Part shown: positions 1,272 to 14,790 of the stretch, in pieces
How the letters are laid out: the number at the start of each line of letters is the position of its first letter
Position numbering within the stretch: position 1 is the stretch's first letter
NCBI GenBank assembly: GCA_019057635.1
Contig: DXJL01000038.1
Span: forward strand, 1 to 14,943
DNA from: Candidatus Heimdallarchaeota archaeon
GTDB taxonomy: Archaea > Asgardarchaeota > Heimdallarchaeia > Hodarchaeales > Hodarchaeaceae
Direction: 5' to 3'
DNA length: 14,943 nt
The notes under the pieces: generated by a model
The model's input: only the letters and a program-made list of their open reading frames with translations
The model's database searches: none
What the model was told of the DNA's origin: nothing
Position numbers and translations under genes: made by a program

Positions 1272-3797
1272 TTAAAAAAGATCATCCTCTAGATCTTCAT
1301 TGCCCTCTGGCATTCTCCCGAATTCTTGCATGAATTGTTGTAGTAATTCACTCTCTTTCTTAGTATACATGGGATCTTCCTCGTAACCAAAGTAGCTAGC
1401 TTTTGGGTTACTGATTAACTGCTCTTCTACCGCATATCGTAAATTTTGTGTTCCTTGAATGAGTATAATTTGTTTATTTTCGTCAAGAAGATGAAATGCG
1501 CCTTCGCTTTCAGGAATATTTAGCAAATTCTCTTTCAACAATTCAATCCATTTCTGAGGGGGAAAAGTTACAGATGATATCTGGAGCCTTAGATCACATC
1601 CTAAACATCGTTTTGCTTCTACAACAGCCATCTCTTCATTATAACCTAATTCTATCTCGTCAAAACCTTTTAAACGATCTGAGATTGGTAATTTTGGCAT
1701 TATAACGCGTTTCTTGTCGTAAAAATCGTCATCACGTCCAATCCACGGGTTAGAAGTCATGTCTTTCGTGAGATCTCCATCGATTTCACCAGTACCTCCT
1801 AAGTATTTATCAATTGAACGAGCAGCCTTTCGACCTAATTCAATTGCTTCAACAACAGAAATGGGTCCTTCTGTCACTTCTCCTCCTGCAAACACTCCTG
1901 GAGTGGAAGTTTCTAGTGTACTTTCACTAATTTGGATAAACCCTTCAGGAGAAATGTCTACCTCAACTTCCGTACTTAAAACCGATAAATCGATCTTTTG
2001 ACCGATTGCCATTATTATTATGTCAGTATCAACAGATAGTATCATTGTTTCATCAAAAGTAGGATTAAAATTTCCTTTGGTATCAAAAACACTAGTACAC
2101 TTAATTAACTCGACTCCAGTTACTTTTCCATCTTTTCCAAGTATTTTATTGGGTCCCCATGAACAATTGAGACCGATTCCTTCGTCTAATATTTCTTTAA
2201 TCTCCCATTCGTGAGCTGGCATCTCTTCTCTAGATTCTAAACAGACCACTTGGACTTTGTTTGCCCCTTGGCGAAGAGCAGTTAATGCTACATCCATTGC
2301 AACATTTCCTCCACCTATAACAAGGACATGATCTCCTACCTTAATTTCAGGATTTGAATTAACATCCTTTAGAAATTCTAATCCCCAAAGTACATTATCA
2401 TATTCTATTCCATCTATTCTCAACTTTTTTGCCTGTTGAGCTCCAATTGCTAGAAAAGTTGCCTCATATCCTTGGGATTCCAGATCCGCGAGAGTTAATT
2501 CCTTTCCAATAATCTCTTCAGTTTTTATTTCAATTCCCATGTTCAAAATATGTTCAAGGTCTTTCTGAAGAATTTCTCTTGGTAATCGGTATTTTGGTAT
2601 GCCGAAACTCAACATACCTCCCACATTTGCTTCAGCTTCAAATACCGTTAACGAATGGCCAGCTTTCGCTAAATAATAGGCAGCAGTGAGTCCAGCTGGG
2701 CCAGAACCTACAACTGCGATCTTTTTTCCTTTAGGGGGTATTGAAGTTTTTTGTGATTTCCATGCTCCTGAATCATGTTCTAGGGCAAAACGTTTGAGTG
2801 CACATATAGCAATAGGTTCGTTAATCTGACTCCGACGACAATTCTCCTCACATACATGAAAACAAATCCTTCCAAGCACTGAAGGGAATGGAGTTTTCTC
2901 ACGAATAACTGCCACGGCTTGATCATAATCTCTATTAGCTATATGGCGAATATAACGGGGAACATCCGCTTCTAAAGGGCAATTATCGCGACATGGGACG
3001 AGAGTACTTTCACGTTCAGCCCAAAGAATGTCTTTGTCCGATAATGCTCCTGTCGGACATACTTCTACACAAGCACCACAGAATTTACATCCTGATTCTT
3101 TTAATGTAGGTTTAATGCTCCCTACGATCGTTTCACCATCGGAAAAAACGAAGCCAAGTGCATCTACTCCCCTAACATCCCGACATATTCTTACACATCG
3201 GGTACAACCAATACAAAGCTCATAATTTCGAGTAAATAGAGGTTCATCCTCAAGTACATTAAATTCCTGGGGTATATAACGTGGCGTATCTTCTCTGATT
3301 CCAATGTATTCAGCAACTTTTTGCAATTCGCATCGTCCAAATTCTGGACAACATCGTTCTTCTACTGGAACATTTGTTGAACAAGGTTCACGACTACATC
3401 CTTTCTGTTGAGCACAAGTTAAACAGGCATGACGGTGTTTTGAGAGAATATTCTTCATTTTCTCTCTCCGATAATCTTTGATATCGGAGGTATCAGTCCA
3501 AATCTTCAAATTTTCTTCTGTCATTCTGTTACATGATGTTACTAGCTCTTCTTCTCCTTCTATTTTCACTATACAAAGTTGACACCCCTCATGTTCTTGC
3601 AAGGAATTATCATTTTTGTACTGTACCGTACCTTGGTACACAGATTCTACTGGTTTCATTCCTTGAGCAGATGATAAGTCAGGATGTGTACAAAGTCGTG
3701 GTATATAGATTTCAGAAACTTCTGCTGCTTCCAGTATTGATATTCCCTTTTCTACAGAAAAATCCACACCATTTATCGTGAGATTGACTTTTTCCAT
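1272..3797 (-). CDS. bzdV: BzdV-like NAD(P)H:ferredoxin oxidoreductase: NuoG-like [2Fe-2S]/[4Fe-4S] N-terminus, GltD/NfnB-like FAD/NAD(P) domain, C-terminal GIY-YIG-like domain
   Basis: IPRLC...GCQLC...TSC [2Fe-2S]; CIGCTRCVRIC and CKFCGACVEVCP 2x[4Fe-4S]; PCRDNCP/GRICFHVCEENC GltD clusters; GSGPAG FAD and GGGNVAMD NAD(P) motifs; EAKRCLGC; lies directly after bzdNOPQM. Confidence 0.85.
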   Translation of the reverse strand: MEKVNLTINGVDFSVEKGISILEAAEVSEIYIPRLCTHPDLSSAQGMKPVESVYQGTVQYKNDNSLQEHEGCQLCIVKIEGEEELVTSCNRMTEENLKIWTDTSDIKDYRREKMKNILSKHRHACLTCAQQKGCSREPCSTNVPVEERCCPEFGRCELQKVAEYIGIREDTPRYIPQEFNVLEDEPLFTRNYELCIGCTRCVRICRDVRGVDALGFVFSDGETIVGSIKPTLKESGCKFCGACVEVCPTGALSDKDILWAERESTLVPCRDNCPLEADVPRYIRHIANRDYDQAVAVIREKTPFPSVLGRICFHVCEENCRRSQINEPIAICALKRFALEHDSGAWKSQKTSIPPKGKKIAVVGSGPAGLTAAYYLAKAGHSLTVFEAEANVGGMLSFGIPKYRLPREILQKDLEHILNMGIEIKTEEIIGKELTLADLESQGYEATFLAIGAQQAKKLRIDGIEYDNVLWGLEFLKDVNSNPEIKVGDHVLVIGGGNVAMDVALTALRQGANKVQVVCLESREEMPAHEWEIKEILDEGIGLNCSWGPNKILGKDGKVTGVELIKCTSVFDTKGNFNPTFDETMILSVDTDIIIMAIGQKIDLSVLSTEVEVDISPEGFIQISESTLETSTPGVFAGGEVTEGPISVVEAIELGRKAARSIDKYLGGTGEIDGDLTKDMTSNPWIGRDDDFYDKKRVIMPKLPISDRLKGFDEIELGYNEEMAVVEAKRCLGCDLRLQISSVTFPPQKWIELLKENLLNIPESEGAFHLLDENKQIILIQGTQNLRYAVEEQLISNPKASYFGYEEDPMYTKKESELLQQFMQEFGRMPEGNEDLEDDLF

Positions 3798-3875
3798 TTC
3801 CTTTACTCCCAGAATAATAATTTCTTTCTCTGCTAGGTAGAAACATTGTTAAAATCATATTAATGAGGAAATATC

Positions 3876-4163
3876 TTACCATGAATGGGAAATAGCACCA
3901 GGTTCACAGCTTTGAACACAAGGCAGATTTATTGGTCCAGTAGTAGGTTTACAAGGGGCACAGGAATATTTAATTTTCTTTCGATGTTCATCAGTGACTC
4001 TTGCGACAAGTTCCTCTGCTAGAGGATCTAATTCGTTTTCAACTACCTCTAAAACTTTTTCAGGACAGGCTTCAACGCATCTAGTACACCCATCGCAGAG
4101 TTCGGTATCGATAGTAATATAAAATTCTCCTGAACCATCTTTATAGCCATAATTTGCTTTCAT
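3876..4163 (-). CDS. bzdM: 2x[4Fe-4S] ferredoxin, BzdM type (electron donor to benzoyl-CoA reductase)
   Basis: ANYGYKDGSGEFYITIDTE N-terminus, CDGCTRCVEACP and CAPC-x10-CVQSCEP, ending AISHSW; directly downstream of bzdQ. Confidence 0.85.
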   Translation of the reverse strand: MKANYGYKDGSGEFYITIDTELCDGCTRCVEACPEKVLEVVENELDPLAEELVARVTDEHRKKIKYSCAPCKPTTGPINLPCVQSCEPGAISHSW

Positions 4164-4202
4164 CTTACACTCACTTCATTGAAAATAGTAATCAGCTTTA
4201 AA

Positions 4203-5081
4203 CTACTTTTTACTCGCCTTTTCGACCAAAGCTTTCCCAAATAAGGCACCACCAATTGCGCCTGCAAGTTGTGGATCAATACTCGGTTCTGGAGCTGTCA
4301 CTTTCAACTCCTTCTCAATTCGTGAAACGACACCAATATTCTTAGCAATTCCTCCAGTAATAGCAAAATCATCTTCTACACCAAGTCGTTCAAGAAGGGT
4401 TACTACACGATGTGCCATCGCTCCACAATAAGCAGCTAAGACATTATCTTTAGACCATCCTTTTCGCAATAAAGCTACCGCTTCAGATTTGGCAAAAACA
4501 ACACAAGTGCTACTCACTGGTTCTGGTTCTTCATCTACTAGTGACATCTGACCTACTTCATTAATATGTACCTGAAGAAGATCTGCAAACACTTCCATCC
4601 CTCTTCCAGTCCCCGCAGCACATTTATCATTCATTAGAAATGCAGTAACCTTACCACGGTGGTCACATCGTATTGCTTTACAATCTTGACCTCCCATGTC
4701 TAATACTGTACGGATAGTTGGTCCGTACATAAAGTTAGCACCACGTGCATGACACGCTATCTCCGTAATGGCTCTTTTTGCGAAAGGAACATTTACACGG
4801 CCATATCCAGTTCCGACAGCGTATTCTATGTTATCTAAGGGGAGTTCTGTACCATCTAATGCCCATTTCATTGACTTATTTGCGCTATCAGGACTATCAC
4901 TTCCAGTTCTCATATTGGCATAGCAATAAATTTCTCCATCCACCATTACAACTGATTGAGTACTAACTGACCCTACATCTACCCCAGCGGAAATTATCTC
5001 TCCATTTTTCCAATCTAGATCTGGATTGGTCCAACGTGATTCAGTCCATCTCCAATATTCTTTACTTTCTGAATTAGCCAA
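4203..5081 (-). CDS. bzdQ: Benzoyl-CoA reductase, Bzd type, ATP-binding activase subunit Q (alpha)
   Basis: ASKHA ATPase motifs GVDVGSVSTQ, TGYGR, DMGGQDCK, NDKCAAGTGRG, STCVVFAKSE; Trp-rich N-terminus (EYWRWTESRW); TTG start with GGAGG RBS inside the end of bzdP. Confidence 0.92.
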   Translation of the reverse strand: MANSESKEYWRWTESRWTNPDLDWKNGEIISAGVDVGSVSTQSVVMVDGEIYCYANMRTGSDSPDSANKSMKWALDGTELPLDNIEYAVGTGYGRVNVPFAKRAITEIACHARGANFMYGPTIRTVLDMGGQDCKAIRCDHRGKVTAFLMNDKCAAGTGRGMEVFADLLQVHINEVGQMSLVDEEPEPVSSTCVVFAKSEAVALLRKGWSKDNVLAAYCGAMAHRVVTLLERLGVEDDFAITGGIAKNIGVVSRIEKELKVTAPEPSIDPQLAGAIGGALFGKALVEKASKK

Positions 5082-5086
5082 TTATT

Positions 5087-5875
5087 TTATCCTCCATTCA
5101 TCGTATCTTGAGCTACGAGAGCAGCTCCATAAGCTGAAATAAATTCTGGCACAATTGGATCCTTAGGAATTAAAAGATCGAATCCTAGGTTTCGTTTCAT
5201 TGAATCAACAAACCCTATGTTGTTTGCTACACCTCCAACTAGAGCTACGTCTTTCTCAATCCCCACTCTACGAGTCATGCTAGTGATCCGATCAGCGATC
5301 GCATCATGAACTGCTCTTATAATATCTTCTCTCGGAGTATTTTGGTGAATTAAGGACACTACTTCTGATTCTGCGAAGATTGTACATTGTGCATTCATGG
5401 GTACTGCCTTTGTGGACTTTAAAGACATTTCTCCCATCTTTTCTAACTCTACTTCCAAAGCTCTCGCCATAGCTTCGGTGAATGCGCCCGCGCCAGCAGC
5501 ACATTTCTCATTTATTCCAAAATCAATTATTTTTCCGTTCTCATTTAAGCGAATTGCCCTTCCTTCTTCTGCACCTATATCGATCACAGTACGTACGGAA
5601 GGAAAAACTTTCGAGATTCCACGTGCACTTGCACTGATTTCAGTAACTGTATCGTTTGCAAAAGTAATAGCATCCATTCCAGCTCCTGTTGCAGTAATGT
5701 GTTTAATGTCCTCTCGAGTTATTTTAGCTTTATTCAATGCTTCATTTACTGCTTCTTCAGCAGAAGATTGTTGGTCAAACCCACTCAGAACCGAGGAGGT
5801 TGCAAGAATTTCACTACTCCTTAGAATCACTACTTTCGTATTTTTTGCTCCTAAATCAATTCCAATTACTGTCAT
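5087..5875 (-). CDS. bzdP: Benzoyl-CoA reductase, Bzd type, ATP-binding activase subunit P (delta)
   Basis: GIDLGAKNTK, IDIGAEEGR, NEKCAAGAGAF, NAQCTIFAESEVVS; 262 aa; GGTGA RBS; between bzdO and bzdQ. Confidence 0.9.
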   Translation of the reverse strand: MTVIGIDLGAKNTKVVILRSSEILATSSVLSGFDQQSSAEEAVNEALNKAKITREDIKHITATGAGMDAITFANDTVTEISASARGISKVFPSVRTVIDIGAEEGRAIRLNENGKIIDFGINEKCAAGAGAFTEAMARALEVELEKMGEMSLKSTKAVPMNAQCTIFAESEVVSLIHQNTPREDIIRAVHDAIADRITSMTRRVGIEKDVALVGGVANNIGFVDSMKRNLGFDLLIPKDPIVPEFISAYGAALVAQDTMNGG

Positions 5876-5890
5876 AAGAATTCACCATAT

Positions 5891-7207
5891 TTAATCTACT
5901 AACTTCTTCATTCCAAGGCTTTCCATGAATGCATCTATCCGAACCATTGTTCTTGTAAGATCGAATTCTCTTTCATCCCCCATATTCCCTTCAAATGGCA
6001 TTACTGGAAACCCAGCTTTCTGAATAGCCAAGCGATTTTCTGCAATTCCAAGGCTTAACCCTTCACAACCCCTATTAAAGTGCAAAAGAACTCCGTCAAG
6101 CTTCCATTCCCGTGCAATCCGAATCATCATTTCAGATTTCAATTGTGGGTGATAGAAATGCTGCCATTCAGGTTTACTTAAATTCCACTTTGCAAGAGCT
6201 CGTAAGGCTTCATCGCGATTTGTAATCTCAATTTCAGGAATAGCTTTTGGACCCCATGTCCCATCTTCCTTATCTTCCCACAATCCAATGAGTGAGAAAG
6301 TATAAAGACTTCCTATTGATACACAACCATATTTCTCCATATACCGGAAAACTTTAAGGAATGCCCATGGAGGTTGGGTATCGGTCATAATACGACATTG
6401 TTCGTTTTCTACAGCAGCAATTCCTCGTTCTACACGACTTTTAACTTCAGGATATAGCTCTTTCTCGTAGAAATCGGCAGTCCACTGTGAAGATTTTCTT
6501 AATGTACCTAGAACGTATAAAGCATACATTGTTTTTTCATCTAACGGTGCAGGTATTGTTTTATTAAGCTCACAAATAGCTGCCCAGTAATGACAACTCC
6601 GAAATTCGTTGTGAACTGCTTTGATGAGGAGTTCATCATCGTAGTCTCTACCAGTTTGTTTTTTGAGCCATTTTATTCCATCATGCATTTGTCCTACAAT
6701 ATAATTGATTCTACTTTCGGTTAGTTCTTCATAAGGGCCCACTGATACATCAATGCTAAACATGGGAATCCCTCCTTCAAGATCACTAGCAACCTGATAC
6801 CATTTAGCATGTGAGCAACATATGTGATCTTGCCACATAAAATCAGGCTTTGGAAATTCCTTTGAGAATTGTGGCCAGGCGTATTTGTTTAGAATAATCG
6901 ATCCCCAATAATTTCGCATATATGAACATAGATCTCTTGCATATCCTTTGGTTTCAATAGCTTCTTGACATTCTAAAGCTAATTCTTTATTAAAAGCAAC
7001 AGTTGCGCCATAAGGCTCCCCTGTTAAGCACCATACATCTTCACCCAATCCGGAAGGAATAGCATCGAAAGACCAAGCCCCTCCAGCCCAGCGTATTCCA
7101 CCCTTATCATGGGCTTCTGCGAAGTCTCTATAATAATTCTCACGTAGAGTCTTCGCTTTTCCCCAGCTTTTCAATCTCTCAAATGGGTATTTTGCTTTAC
7201 TCATCAT
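5891..7207 (-). CDS. bzdO: Benzoyl-CoA reductase, Bzd type, subunit O (beta; 2-hydroxyacyl-CoA dehydratase/HgdD fold)
   Basis: [70 protein letters not shown]; GGAGG RBS overlapping the bzdN stop. Confidence 0.93.
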
Positions 7208-7215
7208 ATTTCCTC

Positions 7216-8367
7216 CTAAAATAAATCCTCCTCTCGTAATATTTCAAGAAATGCCTCGACGCGGGTTTTGAATTGACCAATTGGTACAGTAACATCAAAC
7301 TCAAGGAATAAAGTTGCAATTCCCTTATCTTCTAGTTTTTCTTTTATTGCGGGTGTATCCAATTCGTGTGGATCACAAAATTTCTGTTGAATTAAAATTG
7401 CGCCTTGTACATCATATTCTTTTGTTAGTTGTAAAATGTGATCAAGTCTAGTACGATTTGGCCAATCTTTGCTTGGACATGGCACACGTTTCACATATCG
7501 TTCTGCTATTGCGCTCATTAAATCTCTAGATGAACCTACTTCCTTTTGGAAATAGCGGGTACCTGTACAATGATCATCAGTTACAAAAGTTGCTCCTAGC
7601 GATTCAACCATTTTCATAAACTCTGTATCGTCATCTTCAGACCCTATGATAATTAGCCTTTCCCCAGGATCACCTATATCGCGTGAAGGTAGCTTTTGAA
7701 GAAGTAACTCCAACTCACGGTTATGTTCTTCCTTATCTATCATTTGACTTGATACTACCATATACATTGCTTCTAATCCTGTAAGAGGTGGGTTGGGTTC
7801 TTTTCTAAGCTCATACACTTGGTTCATCAAGCGTCGATTTTTGTTCATTAGTTCAATACCACTTTTTAAGTCCTTATCAGTGATAAGATGACCAATCCAT
7901 TTTTCTAGAGATTTTTTGAATTGAATCAACTCTTCTTTTAGGTAAGGAATAGCATGAGGACTCTGGACATGCATTGGATGAGGTAAATAGTAACTATAAT
8001 CTGTGGGAATATGGAGATCCCAGCTTGTATATGCCTGTCTAATGTGAAGACAGCTTTGAGCAATCATGATTCCATCTAGATAGTCAAAACGGCCTTTCAA
8101 TCCCTGTGCAAGGCAATCACGACAAAATGGACAGAACATCGCGAAAATGTGTGGTTCTGTAACATCCTGTGGTTCATGACTTCCTAAAATACGGACTGGA
8201 AGTATATTTGCGGCATAAAGAATCTCTTCGGGTACGTAGGTACAGAAATATCCTATCACCTTTCCCCCAGTGCGTTCTTTCCAAGCCTTTGCATACTCAT
8301 GGCGATTTTCGTACCAATCCTTGAATTGGTTGAAGGTTAAATTTTCTTCTTCTTGTACAAGTTGCAT
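7216..8367 (-). CDS. bzdN: Benzoyl-CoA reductase, Bzd type, subunit N (gamma)
   Basis: [67 protein letters not shown]; AGGTG RBS upstream. Confidence 0.93.
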
Positions 8368-9247: not shown

Positions 9248-9339
9248 CTCATAATCAATGGACCCAAAAAAATATAGTTGGGAAAAATTGAAGAATACTA
9301 AACATAGGTTTAATGATTGTTTGATCGAGACTGAGAATT

Positions 9340-9624
9340 ATGATGAAAGAGAGTATTGAAATCATCTTTACTGCAACTTTCAGAGAAATCACAAAAAAGA
9401 GGAAAATCATTGAAGAAATTAATGAGGATTGTACTTTTGAAAGAATTTTAACACGTTTAGTGAAAAAGTACGGTAATGATTTTAACAACGTAATTAACTC
9501 TCAAACAGGTAAAATTTCTAGCGATATTCTTATAATGTTGAATGGAAAAGGAATCAGAGATATTGATGAGAAAATTAAAGATAAAGATGTTTTGATATTC
9601 AGTCTTCCTGTAGGTGGCGGTTAA
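9340..9624 (+). CDS. moaD: MoaD/ThiS/SAMP ubiquitin-like sulfur carrier
   Basis: Beta-grasp pattern (IIFTATFREIT...ILIMLNGKGI...KDKDVLIFSLPVGGG) with C-terminal diglycine; adjacent to an AOR-family gene, a common context. Confidence 0.88.
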   Translation: MMKESIEIIFTATFREITKKRKIIEEINEDCTFERILTRLVKKYGNDFNNVINSQTGKISSDILIMLNGKGIRDIDEKIKDKDVLIFSLPVGGG

Positions 9625-9639
9625 ACAGGTGTTGTTACA

Positions 9640-9786
9640 ATGAATGAAGTCAGATGTTTAAATTGTTTGAAACGCTTTCAAGTTCAACTAAATAGTGAAA
9701 AAGCTGAATGCCCTCAATGTAATACTCAATATAGAATATCTTGGCCAAAGCCAGATCAACCAAAGATTCGTGGTTTAGCAAAATAA
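9640..9786 (+). CDS. 48-aa zinc-ribbon microprotein (CxxC-x14-CxxC), absent from the ORF track
   Basis: Manual translation: MNEVRCLNCLKRFQVQLNSEKAECPQCNTQYRISWPKPDQPKIRGLAK*; AGGTG RBS at 9626-9631; fills the moaD-AOR gap (15 bp and 19 bp spacers). Confidence 0.8.
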   Translation: MNEVRCLNCLKRFQVQLNSEKAECPQCNTQYRISWPKPDQPKIRGLAK

Positions 9787-9805
9787 ATCGTTAAAGGTTT
9801 TTACT

Positions 9806-11698
9806 ATGGTTTGGAATAGGAAAATCGCGCATATTAATCTAACCTCTGGGAAGGTACAGACTAAAAAAATCTCTAAATCCCTTCGGAAACAATTCCTAGG
9901 AGGGAGAGGGCTTAATATGTACTACCTATATCAATACATTAAACCTGGAATTGACCCTTTAGGCCCTGAAAATGCTTTATTTATAGGAACTGGCATACTT
10001 ACTGGAATTCCAGCTCTCGGTGCTGGGAGATGTGACATTGCAGCAAAGTCACCTTTGACTGGTGCAGTTGGTGATTCTAATATTGGAGGTTTTTTTGCTC
10101 CTGAATTGAGATTTGCAGGTTTTGATCATTTGATGGTAACTGGGAAAGCTGAAAAACCAAGTTATATTTGGATCCATGATGGAGAAGTAACAATTCAAGA
10201 TGCAACCCATTTATGGGGGAAAGATACCTTTGAAACTCAAGATCAAATCCGTTCCGACCACAATGATGAACAGATAAAGAGTTTAGTAATAGGTAAGGCA
10301 GGAGAAAACCTTGTTAGATATGCGAATGTAAGGACTGGTATGAAAAACGCAGCTGGCAGAACAGGGATGGGATGCGTTATGGGCTCAAAGAATTTGAAAG
10401 CAATCGCTACACGAGGAACATTGGATGTAGAGTTTGCCTATCCTGACAAATTACTAGATTATTGTTCAGAAATGAATAATCAAATCACAGGATCACGATG
10501 GGCAAGCGCCCAATCAAAATGGGGAACACTCATAATTTATAGTAATACAAATACTACTGGATTAATTAGAACACGAAATTTCCAGCTAAATCTTCTCGAG
10601 GATGGTGAAAATTTAGAGCCTGAAGTAATGGACGAATATACAATTGGAATGTCTGGCTGTTATGGATGTAGTGTCCATTGTCGTCATCGATATGTACTAA
10701 AAGATGGCCCGTATGCCCCTCTTTTTGGTGAAGGTCCAGAATACACCTCTCTTGGAGCATTTGGTACCATGGTTGGCTGTAAAAAAATGGAAACCGTTCT
10801 AGTTGGTAATCATCTTGTGAATAAGTATGGTATTGATACACTAGAAGTTGGTGGGATCATAGCTTGGGTTATGGAGCTTAATGAGAAAGGTTTACTTTCA
10901 GAAAAATTAACCGATGGCTTAAATCTTGAATGGGGGAATGAAGAGGCTGTTTTTGAGCTCATCAAAAGAATCAGTAAAAGAGAGGGTGATTTAGGGAACA
11001 TACTTGCTGATGGTTTTCTACCAGCAATAGCAAAAATAGGGAAGGAATCAGAGTATTATGCCATGCAAATTAAAGGCATGAGTAATTTACATTCCGATGA
11101 ACGTCCTACACCAAGTTTAGCATTGGGTATCGCAACTTCCACACGAGGTGCGGAGCACTTGAGAAGTCGTCCCGCCATAGATCTTTATGGACTTCCAGAA
11201 GAACTCTTGGAAGAGATTTATGGGGCACCAATGTCTTCAGATTATACTTCATATGAGGGAAAAAGCCGTATGGTCTGGTGGCAGGAACTTTTATATGCAG
11301 TCACAGATTCAATTGGTATATGTAAATTTCAGACTGTTTTTTGTGCTGTACATGCCCCCAAATTCGAAGAATTTTCTAAACTTATTGAGTATACTTCTGC
11401 TCTAAAGATTTCAAAACCTGAGCTTATGGAAATCGGCGAAAGGATAATAACAACAGAGCGAATGTTTAACAATCGCGAAGGATTTTCCAGAAAAGACGAT
11501 AAGCTACCTGAAAGATTCTTTAAAGAACCAACAACCTTAGGACTTCCTATAATCAAAGGAAAGAAGATTGAGAAAGGAAGATTCAATACTATGATTGATG
11601 AATACTATTCCCTCCATGGATGGGATAATAATGGAGTTCCTTCTGAAGAAACGCTTAAGAGGCTTGGATTAGAAAATAAATATTCAATGAATAGCTAG
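9806..11698 (+). CDS. aor: Tungsten-dependent aldehyde:ferredoxin oxidoreductase (AOR/WOR) family catalytic subunit with non-canonical active-site residues
   Basis: FLGGRG, AKSPLTG..GDSNIGG, AAGRTGMGCVMGSKNLKAI, CYGCSVHC plus GICKF [4Fe-4S] ligands, GIDT, RGAEHL, DDKLPERF, EYYSLHGWD..GVP; 630 aa. Confidence 0.92.
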   Translation: MVWNRKIAHINLTSGKVQTKKISKSLRKQFLGGRGLNMYYLYQYIKPGIDPLGPENALFIGTGILTGIPALGAGRCDIAAKSPLTGAVGDSNIGGFFAPELRFAGFDHLMVTGKAEKPSYIWIHDGEVTIQDATHLWGKDTFETQDQIRSDHNDEQIKSLVIGKAGENLVRYANVRTGMKNAAGRTGMGCVMGSKNLKAIATRGTLDVEFAYPDKLLDYCSEMNNQITGSRWASAQSKWGTLIIYSNTNTTGLIRTRNFQLNLLEDGENLEPEVMDEYTIGMSGCYGCSVHCRHRYVLKDGPYAPLFGEGPEYTSLGAFGTMVGCKKMETVLVGNHLVNKYGIDTLEVGGIIAWVMELNEKGLLSEKLTDGLNLEWGNEEAVFELIKRISKREGDLGNILADGFLPAIAKIGKESEYYAMQIKGMSNLHSDERPTPSLALGIATSTRGAEHLRSRPAIDLYGLPEELLEEIYGAPMSSDYTSYEGKSRMVWWQELLYAVTDSIGICKFQTVFCAVHAPKFEEFSKLIEYTSALKISKPELMEIGERIITTERMFNNREGFSRKDDKLPERFFKEPTTLGLPIIKGKKIEKGRFNTMIDEYYSLHGWDNNGVPSEETLKRLGLENKYSMNS

Positions 11699-11699
11699 A

Positions 11700-12200
11700 A
11701 TGGAGAATTTCAGGATGCAGAAATTTTTATTTATAAACCCGGAAAAATGTTCTGGGTGTCGGATTTGTGAAACAGTTTGCTCCCTTCACCACGAAAAAGT
11801 TTGTAATCCAACTTATGCACGAATTCAAGTGATCAAATGGGAAAGTTCAGGTTTATACATACCCATGGTTTGTCAGCAGTGTGAAGATCCAATTTGTGAA
11901 ACTGTTTGTCCAATGGGGGCAGTATTTAAGGATGAAAATACTGGAGCTATTCTGATTGACTATGATCTATGTGTCGGGTGTAAACTTTGTGTTACACATT
12001 GTCCCTTTGGTGGAGTTGTTATAGGTAAAGACGGAAAAATTAAGAAGTGTGATCTTTGTGATGGAGATCCGTTATGTGTTAAGAATTGCGAACCGAAAGC
12101 TCTTCAGTACATTGAGGGAACCACAATTAATTTTCATAAACGCAAAGCTGCCGCTCAAAGATTTTCTGAATTAATGCAAAAATTGTTAGCAGCGACTTAA
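11700..12200 (+). CDS. 4x[4Fe-4S] electron-transfer subunit (DmsB/HycB-like; small subunit of the AOR); alternative start ATG at 11715
   Basis: 16 Cys in CSGCRICETVC, CQQCEDPICETVCP, CVGCKLCVTHCP and CDLCDGDPLCVKNC; begins 1 bp after the AOR stop; GGAG at 11702-11705 favours the ATG at 11715. Confidence 0.9.
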   Translation: MENFRMQKFLFINPEKCSGCRICETVCSLHHEKVCNPTYARIQVIKWESSGLYIPMVCQQCEDPICETVCPMGAVFKDENTGAILIDYDLCVGCKLCVTHCPFGGVVIGKDGKIKKCDLCDGDPLCVKNCEPKALQYIEGTTINFHKRKAAAQRFSELMQKLLAAT

Positions 12201-12202
12201 TA

Positions 12203-13744
12203 TTACTCATGAGTCTTTTTCAATGCAGATCCGACGATTTCTGTAATATCACTAACTTTTATTGGTATCGATTTTCTTTTTGCAGTAATACGAAAGTTCA
12301 TTTGACAAAGAGGACATGCTGTTGTCAACATATCTATATTTAAAGGTGAAAAGTCATCATATAATCTATTAGAAGCAATATCCATACTTATCTGATAATT
12401 AAAATTCCATAATCCGCCCCCTCCGCCACAACATCGTGCTTGAGATCTATTGAACATCATTTCGGTTAGTTGAAGATTTGGTATCATTTTCAAGATTTTA
12501 CGAGGTGCATGATAGACACCACTGTGTCTACCAAGAGAACATGGATCGTGGTACGTGATTTTTGCATTTAAGGGATTAAACTTCAATTTCTTCTTTTTAA
12601 TTTCGTTTTCGATATATTGTGTTGAGTGAAAAACTTTACACGGCAGATCAAGATTGAATATCTCTGGAAAAAGCTTCGTGAAGGTGTAAAAACATCCTGC
12701 ACAGGGAGTAATTACCGTGTTAACCCCTGTTTTTTCAATTTTTTGAATAATTTCCTTTGCAATTATTTTTGCTTCATTCCACAGACCTGATGAAAACAAA
12801 ACATACCCACAACATCCTTCATCTTCCCCTAGCGTTGTAAAGTTAGCTTGAACCGCTTTTAAAATATTATAAAATGCTATGGCGGTTTTAGGAGTACGAC
12901 TTGATACCATACATCCAACCCAATAAAGAATGTCTGGTTTTTCTGAGAAGTTTCTATCAGAGATATCATTTAACCATGCGAAGCGTTTTTCATGTGGAGT
13001 TGCGGCTGGGTCTCCAGTTTTTGATATGTTTGAAGAGGTTGTATAAAATATGCTAGGAGCTAAATTTTTTTCTGCAATCATATTCCTTGTATGAACAATT
13101 GCTTTGTGAAAGTCTGAATGCTTAAAACACTCGCTAAAACAGTTACCGCACTCACTACAAGTATATAAAACATCAATAATTTTTTTTGAAATTTCTAATT
13201 CTCCTTTAAGTAATCCTCTAATCAATAGCATCCTCCCCTTAGCCGACCATGTTTCAACTCCGTCATAAGAACGAGTAATTGTACAATAACTACCAATGGT
13301 GTTATTAAATAAGCATTTAGTTAAGCTACTCTCTGAAAACAATGTCTGTATTGCTGATGTAATGTTATTTTGGACACTATGCGGATTTTTCTGTATCTTA
13401 CGTATAATTAATTCCTTGATATTGGTTGGTTTCTCTGATAAGCGACTAATTTCAGGGATTTTTGTATTATCTAGCAATATAGAGATTTTTGAAGGATTAC
13501 TTAATGGGAATGAATCTGGTGTACTTTTTCTGATTATTTCGACATTTTTTTCTTTCTCCCAATTTAATAATATAGTAGAAATTTCAGATTCATTATCCCT
13601 TACCACAATGTCAAACATTGGATGAATTGATCTTGTATAAATGTTTTCAAAAGAGTAAACATATCGATCTTCAATATCCGTCAGAACTTGAATCTTTGGA
13701 GATAAGCTGCTGAATTCTTTAACAATTTCGCTTACAGATTTCAT
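12203..13744 (-). CDS. HdrD/GlcF-like Fe-S oxidoreductase with two CCG domains, a degenerate first ferredoxin motif and a vestigial GlcD-like N-terminus
   Basis: CSECGNCFSEC; YWVGC...GCCG...TPCAGC; YHDPCSLGR...CCGGGGG...TACPLC; ETWSAKGRMLL is typical of GlcF-like proteins. Confidence 0.82.
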   Translation of the reverse strand: MKSVSEIVKEFSSLSPKIQVLTDIEDRYVYSFENIYTRSIHPMFDIVVRDNESEISTILLNWEKEKNVEIIRKSTPDSFPLSNPSKISILLDNTKIPEISRLSEKPTNIKELIIRKIQKNPHSVQNNITSAIQTLFSESSLTKCLFNNTIGSYCTITRSYDGVETWSAKGRMLLIRGLLKGELEISKKIIDVLYTCSECGNCFSECFKHSDFHKAIVHTRNMIAEKNLAPSIFYTTSSNISKTGDPAATPHEKRFAWLNDISDRNFSEKPDILYWVGCMVSSRTPKTAIAFYNILKAVQANFTTLGEDEGCCGYVLFSSGLWNEAKIIAKEIIQKIEKTGVNTVITPCAGCFYTFTKLFPEIFNLDLPCKVFHSTQYIENEIKKKKLKFNPLNAKITYHDPCSLGRHSGVYHAPRKILKMIPNLQLTEMMFNRSQARCCGGGGGLWNFNYQISMDIASNRLYDDFSPLNIDMLTTACPLCQMNFRITAKRKSIPIKVSDITEIVGSALKKTHE

Positions 13745-13772
13745 AGTACTATCTCAATAGTAGAATAAATGC

Positions 13773-13779
13773 ATATAAA
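13773..13779 (-). promoter_or_regulatory. Putative archaeal TATA box (TTTATAT) for the HdrD/GlcF-like gene, near-leaderless
   Basis: Minus-strand TTTATAT ending 29 nt upstream of the ATG at 13744. Confidence 0.45.
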
Positions 13780-13841
13780 TTACTTGTTCATAATAGTAAA
13801 AGGATTCAATATCTTTAATCATTTGTCTCGAAATGTTGAAA

Positions 13842-14025: not shown

Positions 14026-14790
14026 TTGAGTGATGAATTAATTTTAGTCGAAAAAAGAGATTCTATTGGGAAAATAATCTTTAACAACGGCCCATTAAAT
14101 ATTTTAAATATTGACATGATGAAACAGATCAATAAGACGCTTGATGATTTCCTAGAAGACAATTCTCTCAAAGCGATAGTGTTTGATCACTTTGGAAAAG
14201 CATTCTCTGCAGGAGTCGATGTCGGGGAACACGTGGGGGATACTGCTAAAAAAATGTTAGAAGTATTCCATGGAATGTTTAAAAGGTTAAATCATATGAA
14301 AATACCTACAGTCGCTTGTGTAAAGGGAGCTGCATATGGTGGGGGATGTGAGGTAGCTGCTTTCTGTGATATTGTATTAGCTTCAGAGAAAGCGAAATTT
14401 GGTAATCCAGAAATAAAAGTGGGGGTCTTTCCTCCCGTGTCAGCGGTCATATTTCCTTCTATACTTGGAGAGAAAAAAGCATTTGAACTTATATTACAAG
14501 GAGAGATTATAGATGCGGAAGAAGCACACAGAATAGGCCTTGTCAATCAAGTATTCTCCTTAGAATCTTATGAGCAAGATGTATCTACATTTCTTGAAAG
14601 ATTTAACAAATTAAGTGCTATTGTATTGCAATATTCTAAAAAGGCCATTAAATTAGGAATATCTGACTTTGAGACCAAGTTAGACGAAGTAGAAACTCTT
14701 TATCTCAAAGAACTTATGGCAACAACTGATGCGAATGAGGGTTTACAAGCTTTTATTGAGAAACGTTCGCCTCAATGGCAGAATCGATAA
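14026..14790 (+). CDS. dch: Crotonase-family hydratase, most likely cyclohexa-1,5-diene-1-carbonyl-CoA hydratase (Dch/BzdW/BamR type)
   Basis: PLNILNIDMMKQIN, AFSAGVDVGEH, GAAYGGGCEVA, KFGNPEIKVGVFPP (both catalytic Glu present), DANEGLQAFIEKRSPQW; AGGTGA RBS with TTG start; benzoyl-CoA reductase context. Confidence 0.75.
   Translation: MSDELILVEKRDSIGKIIFNNGPLNILNIDMMKQINKTLDDFLEDNSLKAIVFDHFGKAFSAGVDVGEHVGDTAKKMLEVFHGMFKRLNHMKIPTVACVKGAAYGGGCEVAAFCDIVLASEKAKFGNPEIKVGVFPPVSAVIFPSILGEKKAFELILQGEIIDAEEAHRIGLVNQVFSLESYEQDVSTFLERFNKLSAIVLQYSKKAIKLGISDFETKLDEVETLYLKELMATTDANEGLQAFIEKRSPQWQNR

Follow-up and report, generated by a model that had tools for sequence, protein, structure and literature searches.

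Gene content of the locus

The window (the whole stretch of DNA that was analyzed, 14,943 nucleotides from a Candidatus Heimdallarchaeota archaeon) encodes the large subunit of a WOR/AOR-family enzyme, WorL, whose gene module lies inside a Bzd-type class I benzoyl-CoA reductase cluster (4203 to 8367, − strand). The genes are as follows.

21 to 932, + strand: PanE/ApbA-family 2-oxoacid reductase (domain searches, locus comparison)
1272 to 3797, − strand: 841-aa 2Fe-2S/NuoG-like/GltD-like flavoprotein (Pfam/NCBIfam searches)
3876 to 4163, − strand: ferredoxin (Pfam/NCBIfam searches)
4203 to 5081, − strand: bzdQ (NCBIfam equivalog BzdQ, 413.9 against a cutoff of 380.2)
5087 to 5875, − strand: second ATPase (passes the activase domain model only)
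5891 to 7207, − strand: bzdO (NCBIfam equivalog BzdO, 684 against a cutoff of 448.6)
7216 to 8367, − strand: bzdN (NCBIfam equivalog BzdN, 499 against a cutoff of 453.8)
9340 to 9624, + strand: ThiS/MoaD-like small protein ending in Gly-Gly-Gly (Pfam ThiS, 24.5 bits; NCBIfam moaD_arch, 49.4 against a cutoff of 49.5)
9806 to 11698, + strand: WorL, 630 aa (Pfam AFOR_N and AFOR_C; match to 1aor; AlphaFold2 model)
11700 to 12200, + strand: WorS, small subunit of the polyferredoxin type, whose 16 Cys account for four [4Fe-4S] clusters (matches Fer4_11 and related Pfam families)
12203 to 13744, − strand: HdrD-like protein, convergent with WorS (Pfam CCG, 106.7 bits; best NCBIfam match TfrB, 160 against a cutoff of 385)
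14026 to 14790, + strand: ECH_1-domain gene (Pfam ECH_1; TIGR03189, 188 bits against a cutoff of 292.5)

In the portions of the two papers drawn on here, a ThiS/MoaD-like protein of this kind is called WorX (PMC13328260) and flavoproteins such as the 841-aa protein, when found in bzd clusters, are called BzdV (PMC8163825).

The WorL gene travels with the ThiS-like gene, WorS, and the gene for the HdrD-like CCG protein, an association that is new here. Among 39 related loci with at least 5 kb on both sides, WorS adjoined the WorL-type gene in all 39, and within 10 kb, 37 had the CCG protein and 36 the ThiS-like gene. The 8 other AOR paralogs of this genome served as a control, and neither a WorS nor a CCG gene adjoins any of them. 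In Lokiarchaeal loci, the CCG gene is located upstream and in the same orientation, and in Hodarchaeal and Bathyarchaeal loci, it is located downstream and in the opposite orientation; its adjacency thus persists through rearrangement. In the Lokiarchaeal arrangement, a PanE/ApbA homolog directly follows WorS.

Acyl-CoA-type genes occur within 10 kb in all 39 loci, HGD-D proteins in 32, BcrAD-type ATPases in 30, and the GltD/NuoG-like 841-aa flavoprotein in 6. Of the partner types that make up BamD-I (Hdr-like, MvhD-like, and NuoEFG-like), the HdrD-like one alone was conserved around these loci, with no conserved HdrA-, MvhD-, or NuoEFG-like protein. Because a Bzd-type cluster is present in the window and acyl-CoA-type genes accompany every related locus, the genomic context is consistent with an aromatic or CoA-linked substrate for WorL. 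Models for WtpA (TIGR03730) and ModA (TIGR01256) had no match in the genome itself, which at 91.6% completeness does not establish that these proteins are absent.

WorL and WorS belong to the AOR/WOR superfamily

WorL scores far above the Pfam cutoffs for AFOR_N (265.1 bits; cutoff, 29.8) and AFOR_C (388.1 bits; cutoff, 27), which places it in the AOR/WOR superfamily, and its best match among solved structures in a phmmer search is Pyrococcus furiosus AOR (1aor; E = 1.9e-106, 360 bits), compared with 234 bits for the BamB structure 4z3w. An AlphaFold2 model (mean pLDDT, 95.7) has the three-domain fold of the family, with Z scores of 42 to 54 against seven WOR structures; it superposes on 1aor with a Z of 53.7 and an rmsd of 1.5 Å over 598 residues at 36% identity, and reaches a Z of only 42.4 on BamB, so that the closest similarity is to AORs and not to BamB. 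The quality of the 1aor superposition indicates that the register of the sequence alignment is reliable. The fold, the [4Fe-4S] ligands, and the pterin-binding motifs are all AOR-like and, judged from its sequence, WorL is the catalytic subunit of an uncharacterized clade of tungsten (or molybdenum) bis-pyranopterin oxidoreductases.

The WorS gene starts one base past the WorL stop, and all 16 Cys of its product are invariant in 33 of 33 sequences. Among solved structures, it most resembles AorA (8c0z_C, 156 bits) and the small subunit of AmWOR1 (9mqx_E, 151 bits), followed by WOR5 beta (117 bits) and BamC (62 bits). Class II WORs (WorL plus WorS) in the part of PMC13328260 consulted use ferredoxin as their electron carrier, have no further subunit, and are marked by an adjacent four-cluster small subunit of this sort, which WorL also has.

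A search of the literature found no enzymology for, and no characterized member of, the WorL clade. The passages taken from PMC9246946 contained nothing on these lineages or on active-site residues, a search for "Aor9" and Desulfosarcina variabilis returned nothing relevant, and Asgard and Bathyarchaeal names do not appear in two supplementary files of PMC13328260 (41,661 characters), the other supplements of which may place the clade.

Two second-shell residues are replaced in WorL

The residues of the WorL active site and cluster were located by alignment and are listed with their conservation in a close set of 120 sequences, made up of the query and 119 homologs at 72 to 93% identity.

10526 to 10528, + strand: T241, equivalent to Thr243 of P. 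furiosus AOR (PfAOR), retained (T in 118/120, S in 2/120)
10658 to 10681, + strand: C285, C288, and C292, three of the four [4Fe-4S] ligands (each C in 120/120)
10745 to 10747, + strand: T314, in place of PfAOR Glu313 and FOR Glu308 (T in 120/120)
11093 to 11101, + strand: S430-D431-E432, in place of Tyr427-Asp428-Pro429 of PfAOR (alignment, conservation)
11156 to 11158, + strand: H451, equivalent to PfAOR His448, retained (alignment)
11321 to 11323, + strand: C506, the fourth [4Fe-4S] ligand (C in 120/120)

The motifs concerned begin at residues 309 (EGPEYTS), 429 (HSDER, 11090 to 11104), and 447 (RGAEH), and the codons of S430 and E432 occupy positions 11093 to 11095 and 11099 to 11101. In the phmmer alignments to solved structures, T314 stands opposite Glu313 of 1aor and Glu308 of 1b25, S430 opposite Tyr427 and Tyr416, and H451 opposite His448 and His437, while C285, C288, C292, and C506 fall on C288, C291, C295, and C494 of 1aor; three further alignments listed (9mqx, 8c0z, and 9g7j) also have Glu in the Glu313 column. 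The spacing from Tyr to His, or from Ser to His in WorL, is 21 residues in WorL, 1aor, and 1b25 alike, as the initial annotation of this DNA had noted. Translation and alignment likewise reproduced the positions it gave for T314, S430, E432, and H451 and the retention of the four cluster Cys that it had stated, and the reference residues that it had named (E313 and H448 in AOR; E308, Y416, and H437 in FOR) are borne out by the alignments and by the portions of PMC12096430 and PMC13328260 used here. It had also named superposition on P. furiosus AOR as a check, and the superposition supports the register of the sequence alignment, which has Thr and Ser in the Glu and Tyr columns.

Glu313 of PfAOR, the proposed catalytic base, is replaced by Thr, and the substrate-positioning Tyr427 is replaced by Ser, with a clade-invariant Glu two residues past that Ser. 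Thr243, Glu313, Tyr427, and His448 form a conserved second-shell set (PMC12096430 and section 5 of PMC13328260, in the parts consulted); WorL keeps Thr243 and His448 of AOR sensu stricto and lacks Glu313 and Tyr427, the latter being His in some members. According to the passages used from PMC12096430, a 2025 review, Glu313 is kept in every characterized aldehyde-oxidizing clade and serves as the proton acceptor in current mechanisms, and the second-shell set is missing only in BamB and YdhV, all of which conserve a Cys ligand to tungsten (BamB Cys322). Five of the seven residues that these passages name around the metal are nonetheless retained in WorL (T241, E312, Y313, H451, and Y461), which argues for a modified AOR-type chemistry rather than for a BamB-like rebuild. 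E312 and Y313 are the equivalents of PfAOR Glu311 and Tyr312, and both are present, with H451 and Y461, in 120 of 120 sequences; the residue before H451 is E450 in WorL and D in 119 of the 120.

The initial annotation had also stated that the motif, unlike that of BamB, carries no Cys, and the Glu313 column of WorL, the presumed place of BamB Cys322, indeed holds Thr. YdhV Cys336 lies 22 residues past the third cluster Cys, as does T314 in WorL, a match of spacing alone: phmmer aligned only the N-terminal domain and the C-terminal tail of E. coli YdhV to solved structures, MAFFT places Cys336 inside an insertion, and the YdhV alignment is unreliable in this region. Two other Cys, C76 and C325, are invariant in the WorL clade; the idea that they form a coevolving pair was rejected, as they never co-occur among 150 diverse representatives of the family.

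Conservation and distribution of the clade

T314, S430, and E432 are invariant in all 120 close sequences, which come from Asgard archaea and Bathyarchaeia; in the EYTS and SDER motifs, whose conservation had been proposed as a further check, these three positions are fixed. Across the 630 columns of this set, 162 are invariant, and 24 are both invariant and clade specific (the residue being found in fewer than 10% of the 150 diverse representatives), the three substituted positions among them, so that their conservation exceeds what chance would give. The clade has a support of 0.998 in a FastTree tree, so that the distinct WOR clade with a remodeled pocket put forward in the initial annotation stands. 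Its sister group, in Chloroflexota-type bacteria and 52 to 59% identical, carries the same T/S/E signature in 79 of 80 loci.

The loss of Glu and Tyr, to which the initial annotation had given too much weight, is a clade signature but is not rare in the family. Glu is kept in the T314 column by 67 of the 150 representatives and is absent from 83, and the WorL clade is nested in a 39-tip group that lacks it; the proposal that the T/S/E change is unique in the family was therefore rejected. In the E432 column, Glu occurs in 4 of the 150 representatives, all of which have a non-Glu residue at 314, and since these four are related, they do not provide independent evidence for a role of E432. The invariance of E432 in the clade and its place two residues past S430 are consistent with a substitute carboxylate, as far as the sequences can indicate.

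The lineages in which the cofactor motifs, cluster ligands, and pocket residues are invariant are Hodarchaeales, Heimdallarchaeota, Promethearchaeota, Hermod-, Thor-, and Odinarchaeota, and Bathyarchaeia. At least half of the words sampled from positions 9300 to 13800 occurred in the DNA of three metagenome runs, one from marine sediment and two from cold seeps, which belong to three studies; no RNA data sets were listed for this interval.

The HdrD-like protein as a candidate third subunit

The HdrD-like protein consists of an N-terminal part of unknown fold (residues 1 to 130), an HdrC-like ferredoxin part (about 140 to 260), and CCG motifs at 278 to 351 and 402 to 480; its profile matches HdrB over residues 273 to 489 and HdrC over residues 193 to 262 in the PDB. 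In the N-terminal part, an Atlas feature search returned an FAD_binding_4 fragment at 0.80, which is below the trust level of the tool. None of the ten CCG Cys (C278, C311, C312, C348, C351, C402, C438, C439, C477, and C480) varies among 33 sequences, all of which also have a complete second ferredoxin motif (C196/199/202/206). The first ferredoxin motif has two of its four Cys in the copy of the window and all four in 22 of 33 relatives.

A model of the WorS-CCG complex scored 0.72, against 0.00 for the best control. Of 157 solved complexes, 116 attain this mark, as do 2 of 215 mismatched pairs, a calibration that holds only roughly for the self-made alignments used here. Three model runs share at least 77% of their contacts, with a partner pLDDT of at least 82, and the modeled interface joins WorS 65-73/92-100 with CCG 172-180/203-219, which are cluster-binding stretches. 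Together with the conservation of the HdrD-like gene, the model suggests that a third subunit may be present beyond WorL and WorS. Neither the HdrD-like partner nor the polyferredoxin subunit had figured in the initial annotation. The sister clade shares the T/S/E signature, yet the CCG gene was found in only 5 of its 28 loci with flanks of at least 2.5 kb, so that the altered pocket can occur without the HdrD partner.

Proposed function and alternative explanations

The WorL clade is a real WOR variant with a remodeled second shell and an unreported set of subunits, whose substrate and chemistry we infer. Our results lead us to favor, tentatively, an enzyme composed of WorL, WorS, and the HdrD-like protein that performs AOR-type two-electron chemistry on an aldehyde-type carbonyl and delivers the electrons to the HdrD-like subunit, a reading that we regard as plausible but hold with less than even confidence. 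Such a heterotrimer would oxidize an aldehyde-type carbonyl intermediate from the breakdown of aromatic or alicyclic acids, or would carry out the reverse reduction; T314 and S430 would enlarge the pocket that holds the substrate, and the acid-base role would pass to E432 together with H451. Electrons leaving tungsten would reach the cluster in WorL first, then the four in WorS, and from there the HdrD-like subunit with its ferredoxin-type cluster and two noncubane clusters, where they might be exchanged with a thiol/disulfide pair or another acceptor, rather than or besides with free ferredoxin. The loss of two of the four Cys of the first ferredoxin motif in the CCG protein of the window speaks against this reading, as does the scarcity of the CCG gene in the sister clade. 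Aldehyde oxidation coupled to disulfide reduction would also waste much free energy, which makes a disulfide a questionable electron sink, and we know of no aldehyde-producing step in the benzoyl-CoA pathway.

It is rather unlikely, yet deserves serious consideration, that WorL and WorS form an ordinary ferredoxin-dependent, broad-range aldehyde oxidoreductase of Class II that clears aromatic or aliphatic aldehydes arising as by-products when 2-oxoacids and aromatic acids are metabolized, in which case the T/S/E change would tune the substrate range and the CCG gene would be an uncoupled neighbor. The nearest solved structures are AORs sensu stricto (1aor, 360 bits and Z of 53.7), five of the seven residues surrounding the metal are kept, WorS is nearest to AorA and to the AmWOR1 small subunit, most loci of the sister clade, which shares the signature, have no CCG gene, and the published Asgard reconstructions, in the portion of PMC8163825 used, read all AORs in this manner. 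However, Glu is present in all characterized aldehyde-oxidizing clades, as noted above (PMC12096430), and the passages drawn on report no aldehyde activity for WOR4, in which Tyr is changed to Trp, or for CsWOR41L, which has lost the second shell and was assayed with 46 aldehydes (PMC12096430; PMC13328260). An uncoupled neighbor is also at odds with a CCG adjacency that survives rearrangement at 37 of 39 loci and with a WorS-CCG model that passed its controls. That WorL is instead a catalytically silent or purely electron-transferring paralog with a structural or redox-relay role, as proposed for WOR4, appears very improbable to us: half of the four second-shell residues are gone, and WOR4 shows no detectable activity after a single such change (PMC12096430, in the part used), but the cofactor motifs, cluster ligands, and new pocket residues are invariant across Asgard lineages and Bathyarchaeia, a pattern that selection on the pocket would produce.

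The subunit set also invites comparison with a non-aldehyde, reductive tungsten enzyme that acts on a CoA thioester of an aromatic or alicyclic pathway, for example, in ring, dienoyl, or hydroxy-aryl reduction, in parallel to BamB-BamC-BamD. The tungsten subunit, polyferredoxin, and HdrD-like protein mirror BamB, BamC, and BamD (section 11 of PMC13328260, as consulted), the catalytic Glu and Tyr are gone as in BamB, a benzoyl-CoA reductase cluster is present in the window, and BcrAD-type ATPases and HGD-D proteins accompany 30 and 32 of the 39 loci. We nevertheless consider this reading unlikely, as there is no Cys in the Glu313 column, whereas a Cys ligand is conserved in all BamB and YdhV (PMC12096430, same passages); BamB is the more distant relative by bits (234 versus 360) and by Z (42.4 versus 53.7); the AOR second shell is otherwise intact; bifurcating partners of the HdrA or NuoEFG kind are not conserved, with the flavoprotein at 6 of 39 loci; and the genome already encodes an ATP-dependent benzoyl-CoA reductase. 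In a wider form, which we likewise judge improbable, the WorL clade would join BamB and the YdhV group as a third type of WOR chemistry not acting on aldehydes, with a W-pterin that has no protein ligand and that works via the polyferredoxin to the HdrD-like noncubane subunit, either reducing or dehydroxylating an aromatic or alicyclic CoA thioester or coupling its substrate to a thiol/disulfide pair. If true, this would be an unrecognized step of anaerobic aromatic acid breakdown in Asgard archaea and Bathyarchaeia.

With two of the four residues thought to carry the chemistry exchanged, with its conserved Fe-S and HdrD-like neighbors, and with its place among genes for the breakdown of benzoate-type acids, the WorL enzyme probably does something that no studied family member does. 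A conserved clade in which Glu and Tyr are replaced and the rest of the site is kept is a natural test of the mechanisms built on Glu313: either E432 substitutes, or the enzyme works by another chemistry. Among the Asgard archaea and Bathyarchaeia that inhabit marine and cold-seep sediments, the clade is common, and its host clusters are now read as benzoyl-CoA or 2-hydroxyacyl-CoA pathways; because it sits within such clusters, what it does matters for current views of how aromatic and other organic acids are degraded by these archaea.

Comparison with known systems

With AOR sensu stricto (P. furiosus, 1aor; C. autoethanogenum, 9g7j), WorL shares the fold, the [4Fe-4S] ligands, and the equivalents of Thr243, His448, Glu311, and Tyr312, and differs in having Thr for Glu313, Ser for Tyr427, and Glu for Pro429. 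AOR sensu stricto is a lone homodimer, whereas WorL is accompanied by a polyferredoxin and an HdrD-like partner, as known here from genes and a model. Class II and III WORs (A. aromaticum AorAB(C), 8c0z; P. furiosus WOR5/ASOR, 6x6u; A. mobile WOR1, 9mqx) have in common with this locus the WorL-WorS pair, a four-cluster WorS, and a nearby WorX. They keep the Glu, by alignment in 8c0z and 9mqx and as Glu328 in WOR5 (PMC12096430, in the passages used), where WorL has Thr, and instead of an HdrD-like CCG protein, they have an FAD/NAD subunit or a WorABC bifurcating module as the third partner (PMC13328260, in the part consulted). A subunit composition with an HdrD-like partner is absent from the Class I-V scheme as set out in sections 5 and 9 to 12 of that paper.

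The class II benzoyl-CoA reductase BamBCDEFGHI of G. metallireducens (BamBC, 4z3w) likewise combines a tungsten subunit devoid of the aldehyde-type Glu and Tyr with Fe-S and Hdr-like subunits in a benzoyl-CoA context. In contrast, WorS has four clusters and BamC three (PMC13328260, same portion), and WorL is more distant from BamB in sequence and structure than from AOR, has no Cys in the Glu313 column, and lacks conserved HdrA-, MvhD-, and NuoEFG-like partners. The partner protein itself resembles the CCG proteins of the HdrD/TfrB/GlpC type in joining an HdrC-like ferredoxin to an HdrB-like part in which both CX(n)CCX(n)CXXC motifs are complete, but it falls below all family cutoffs and has an extra N-terminal 130 residues. 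Whereas HdrD, TfrB, and GlpC pair with HdrE, TfrA, and GlpAB, the partner here is a WOR.

Altered active-site residues in an AOR-like protein

WorL, the large subunit of a WOR-type enzyme, belongs to a real and conserved clade of the WOR family that has an AOR-like fold and AOR-like cofactor sites and in which two of the four second-shell positions of the active site have changed. Contig C214, which is the window, belongs to a 3.19-Mb genome that is 91.6% complete; the nearest WorL homologs, at 93% identity, carry the names Hodarchaeales and Heimdallarchaeota, which makes the source an Asgard archaeon.

Features of the window (coordinates, strand, description)
1272-8367, minus: Bzd-type benzoyl-CoA reductase genes (subunits N, O, and Q, each above its NCBIfam equivalog cut-off), plus another ATPase of activase type, a ferredoxin, and a GltD/NuoG-like flavoprotein of 841 aa
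9340-9624, plus: ThiS/MoaD-like gene with a Gly-Gly-Gly end, upstream of worL
9806-11698, plus: WorL, intact ORF, 630 aa (Pfam AFOR_N, 265 bits; AFOR_C, 388 bits)
11700-12200, plus: WorS polyferredoxin, 166 aa, starting one base past the AOR stop
12203-13744, minus: CCG protein, 513 aa, two CCG domains, convergent with WorS
14026-14790, plus: downstream enoyl-CoA hydratase; best model dienoyl-CoA hydratase, below its cut-off

The initial annotation had proposed that this protein lacks the canonical Glu and Tyr and retains the His and all four cluster cysteines, and comparison with solved structures bears this out. The first residues of EGPEYTS, HSDER, and RGAEH are 309, 429, and 447, and their codons had been correctly assigned. 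By phmmer alignment, T314 replaces Glu313 of Pyrococcus furiosus AOR (PfAOR; 1aor) and Glu308 of FOR (1b25), S430 replaces Tyr427 and Tyr416, and H451 matches His448 and His437; the Tyr-to-His interval is 21 residues in WorL (S430-H451), AOR, and FOR alike, and C285, C288, C292, and C506 align with the cluster cysteines. Glu also occupies the T314 column in the remaining structures with alignments shown (9mqx, 8c0z, and 9g7j). [quoted passage not shown]

Passages of PMC12096430 and section 5 of PMC13328260 name Thr243, Glu313, Tyr427, and His448 as second-shell residues conserved in aldehyde-oxidizing members; of these, WorL has only Thr243 (as T241) and His448 (as H451), with other residues in place of Glu313 and Tyr427. 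E312, Y313, and Y461 correspond to Glu311, Tyr312, and Tyr452, likewise assigned to the active site in passages of PMC12096430, so that all three are kept.

Conservation and place in the WOR family

In an alignment of WorL and 119 homologs (n = 120; 72-93% identity), T314, S315, S430, D431, E432, R433, and H451 are invariant (120/120), as are only 162 of the 630 columns overall. Defining clade-specific residues as those present in <10% of a diverse set (the best 150 of 12,258 family representatives, clustered at 50% and sharing 34-56% identity with WorL), we found only 24 columns that are both invariant and clade-specific, T314, S430, and E432 among them; others include C76, D77, W239, C325, L428, I442, and Y461. 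GPEYTS together with xxSDER recurs in 62 of 64 related loci from named genomes, the exceptions being one GPEYST with IISDDR and one locus where the first match to the pattern was GPEFRL. The T314 column of the eight other AOR paralogs in the same genome holds Glu in six and Gln in one, and the last is cut by a contig end.

Several single residues may be recorded here. E450 (11153-11155), just before the conserved His, is Glu in WorL alone and Asp in the 119 other close homologs. C76 and C325, invariant in the 120 close homologs, each occur in 6% of the best 150 of 12,258 representatives and never together among them; C76 directly follows the Arg aligned with Arg76 of PfAOR, which we take to be pterin-phosphate-binding.

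The view that the changed pocket marks a distinct, conserved clade holds, and the supposed rarity of the change does not, as Glu is found at the T314 column in only 67 of the best 150 of 12,258 representatives, followed by Gly (18), Asn (13), Ala (11), Ser (10), Asp (8), and Thr (6). For a phylogeny, FastTree (LG+gamma) was run on 622 columns from 171 sequences, with E. coli YdhV as the root. The set comprised the 150 representatives, 13 close homologs out of the 120, 7 paralogs, and YdhV itself, with a truncated paralog and 107 redundant close homologs omitted. The clade of WorL is distinct (support, 0.998) and lies inside a 39-tip group (support, 0.90) without any Glu at the T314 column, while canonical T-E-(Y/H)-P-H types fall in other groups, the root and deep nodes being weak. 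The named members of ten neighboring clusters are Chloroflexota, Syntrophaceae, Desulfosarcina variabilis ("Aor9"), and Heimdallarchaeota, with generic names only.

According to passages of PMC12096430, Glu is kept in all characterized aldehyde-oxidizing clades (with both Thr and Glu present in GAPOR, and Glu328 in WOR5), WOR4, with Tyr changed to Trp, has no known activity, and only BamB and YdhV are without the second-shell set, having a Cys ligand instead. CsWOR41L, of the YdhV clade, showed no activity on 46 aldehydes (PMC13328260, section 12). Because Glu is absent from the group that contains the WorL clade and the characterized aldehyde-oxidizing clades keep it, this clade is part of a large uncharacterized section of the family where the textbook mechanism cannot hold as written.

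A conserved gene module in acyl-CoA neighborhoods

The ThiS-like, WorL, WorS, and HdrD-like genes form a conserved module that always lies in acyl-CoA neighborhoods, here a benzoyl-CoA reductase cluster. We counted genes within 10 kb of worL in the 39 related loci whose flanks extend 5 kb or more in both directions. All 39 have the polyferredoxin and an acyl-CoA-type gene of some sort; 37 have the CCG protein, 36 the ThiS-like gene, 32 an HGD-D family protein, 32 a thiolase, and 30 a BcrAD-type ATPase. The CCG gene adjoins the AOR gene in both of two arrangements: Lokiarchaeal loci have CCG-worL-worS-panE-like-activase on one strand, surrounded by genes for an HGD-D protein, MaoC hydratase, CoA ligase, thiolase, ETF, and acyl-CoA dehydrogenase, and Hodarchaeal and Bathyarchaeal loci have the CCG gene downstream on the opposite strand. 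The eight other AOR paralogs of the same genome served as a control: among the ORFs closest to each of them (46 of 83 scanned), none is an adjacent gene for a polyferredoxin or a CCG protein.

The 16 cysteines of WorS are invariant in 33 of 33 relatives. The CCG protein appears to have HdrD architecture, because its family profile matches HdrC (residues 193-262) and then HdrB (residues 273-489). Both CCG motifs keep all ten of their cysteines, and the second ferredoxin motif keeps its four, in every one of the 33 sequences compared; the first ferredoxin motif (residues 144-154) has only two of four cysteines in the window's protein and all four in 22 of 33 relatives. This motif is partly degenerate in other Hodarchaeal copies too, and the Hodarchaeal form may do without one [4Fe-4S] cluster.

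A sister clade, found via the Chloroflexota-named representative P0123, comprises 80 metagenome loci at 52-59% identity to WorL, of which 79 carry the T/S/E signature. Where flanks reach at least 2.5 kb, WorS is present in 27 of 28 loci and a CCG513-like gene in only 5; the neighbors are a thiolase with DUF35, a 3-hydroxyacyl-CoA dehydrogenase, and, at some loci only, a Pyr_redox_2 protein. Because this clade has the signature mostly without the CCG gene, the pocket change predates the HdrD partnership.

Other features of these loci were noted. This Hodarchaeales-type genome has a complete-looking Bzd-type class I cluster (bzdN, bzdO, second ATPase, bzdQ, ferredoxin, and BzdV-like flavoprotein), near which lies the Dch-like hydratase (14026-14790, plus strand); homologous clusters, at least 57% identical, occur in 9 of 64 related loci (L010-L013, L015, L021, L032, L033, and L064). 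Such bcr clusters are known from Hermod-, Heimdall-, and Lokiarchaeota according to passages of PMC8163825, in which AORs figure only as general aldehyde scavengers. An operon-like row (HGD-D protein, MaoC hydratase, ThiS on the opposite strand, CCG, worL, worS, PanE-like reductase, and BcrAD-type activase) is conserved at locus L047 (5976-14188) and about 30 other Lokiarchaeal loci; its HGD-D protein (341-408 aa) is a single subunit, the usual number being two, with one BcrAD-type activase. A 1018-aa ORF without a Pfam match lies a few kilobases downstream of the module at L051 (14978-18034) and seven other Lokiarchaeal loci. Elsewhere in the window's genome, one canonical AOR paralog, with a DeoC aldolase at its flank, has a second, shorter CCG-domain ORF at a distance of 3.6 kb (L075, contig C20, 12773-13846; 357 aa, 36 bits), and another of the nine AOR paralogs (L079, contig C72) is in two pieces about 500 bases apart, a 98-aa AFOR_N part and a 511-aa remainder (2403-2699 and 3196-4731), and may be a frameshifted or interrupted gene.

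Predicted contact between WorS and the CCG protein

Modeled together from 33-row alignments of each protein, WorS and the CCG protein scored 0.72 (median of three runs) versus 0.00 for the best of three controls. Of 157 solved complexes, 116 attain the mark that the pair passed, as do 2 of 215 mismatched pairs; this calibration is only rough here because we built the alignments ourselves. Contact agreement between runs was at least 77% and partner pLDDT at least 82. The predicted interface sets cluster-binding stretches of WorS (65-73 and 92-100) against the ferredoxin portion (172-180 and 203-219) of the CCG protein, as would be expected of an electron-transfer contact. The CCG-family profile found no WOR-associated relative in the PDB and thus gives no sign that a solved complex lies behind the score, although one may have contributed to it.

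Interpretation and comparison with known systems

The reading that we tentatively favor, at somewhat under an even chance, is that WorL, WorS, and the HdrD-like protein form a complex that retains two-electron chemistry of the AOR type, with a carbonyl or carboxyl compound from acyl-CoA pathways as its substrate. T314 and S430 would enlarge the pocket, E432 would serve with H451 as the acid-base pair, and the HdrD-like subunit would receive electrons by way of five cubane clusters. Three points count against it: a disulfide as sink would waste energy, the sister clade manages without an HdrD partner, and the benzoyl-CoA pathway has, to our knowledge, no aldehyde step.

A possible, if rather unlikely, alternative is that WorL is an ordinary AOR whose pocket has been tuned and which is linked to ferredoxin. 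That WorL might work reductively on a CoA thioester, in the manner of BamB, seems doubtful to us; its setting is a benzoyl-CoA reductase cluster, and its model lies closer to 1aor than to BamB. A silent paralog is very improbable.

A literature search that included parts of PMC13328260, PMC12096430, PMC8163825, and PMC9246946 found no paper on the WorL clade or on its signature, nor, apart from the Bam complex, on any WOR that has an HdrD-like partner; the clade may already be numbered in the 92-clade tree of Schut et al. 2021. Among solved relatives, WorS scores highest with AorA of A. aromaticum (156 bits); the A. mobile WOR1 small subunit follows at 151 bits, WOR5 beta at 117 bits, and BamC at 62 bits.
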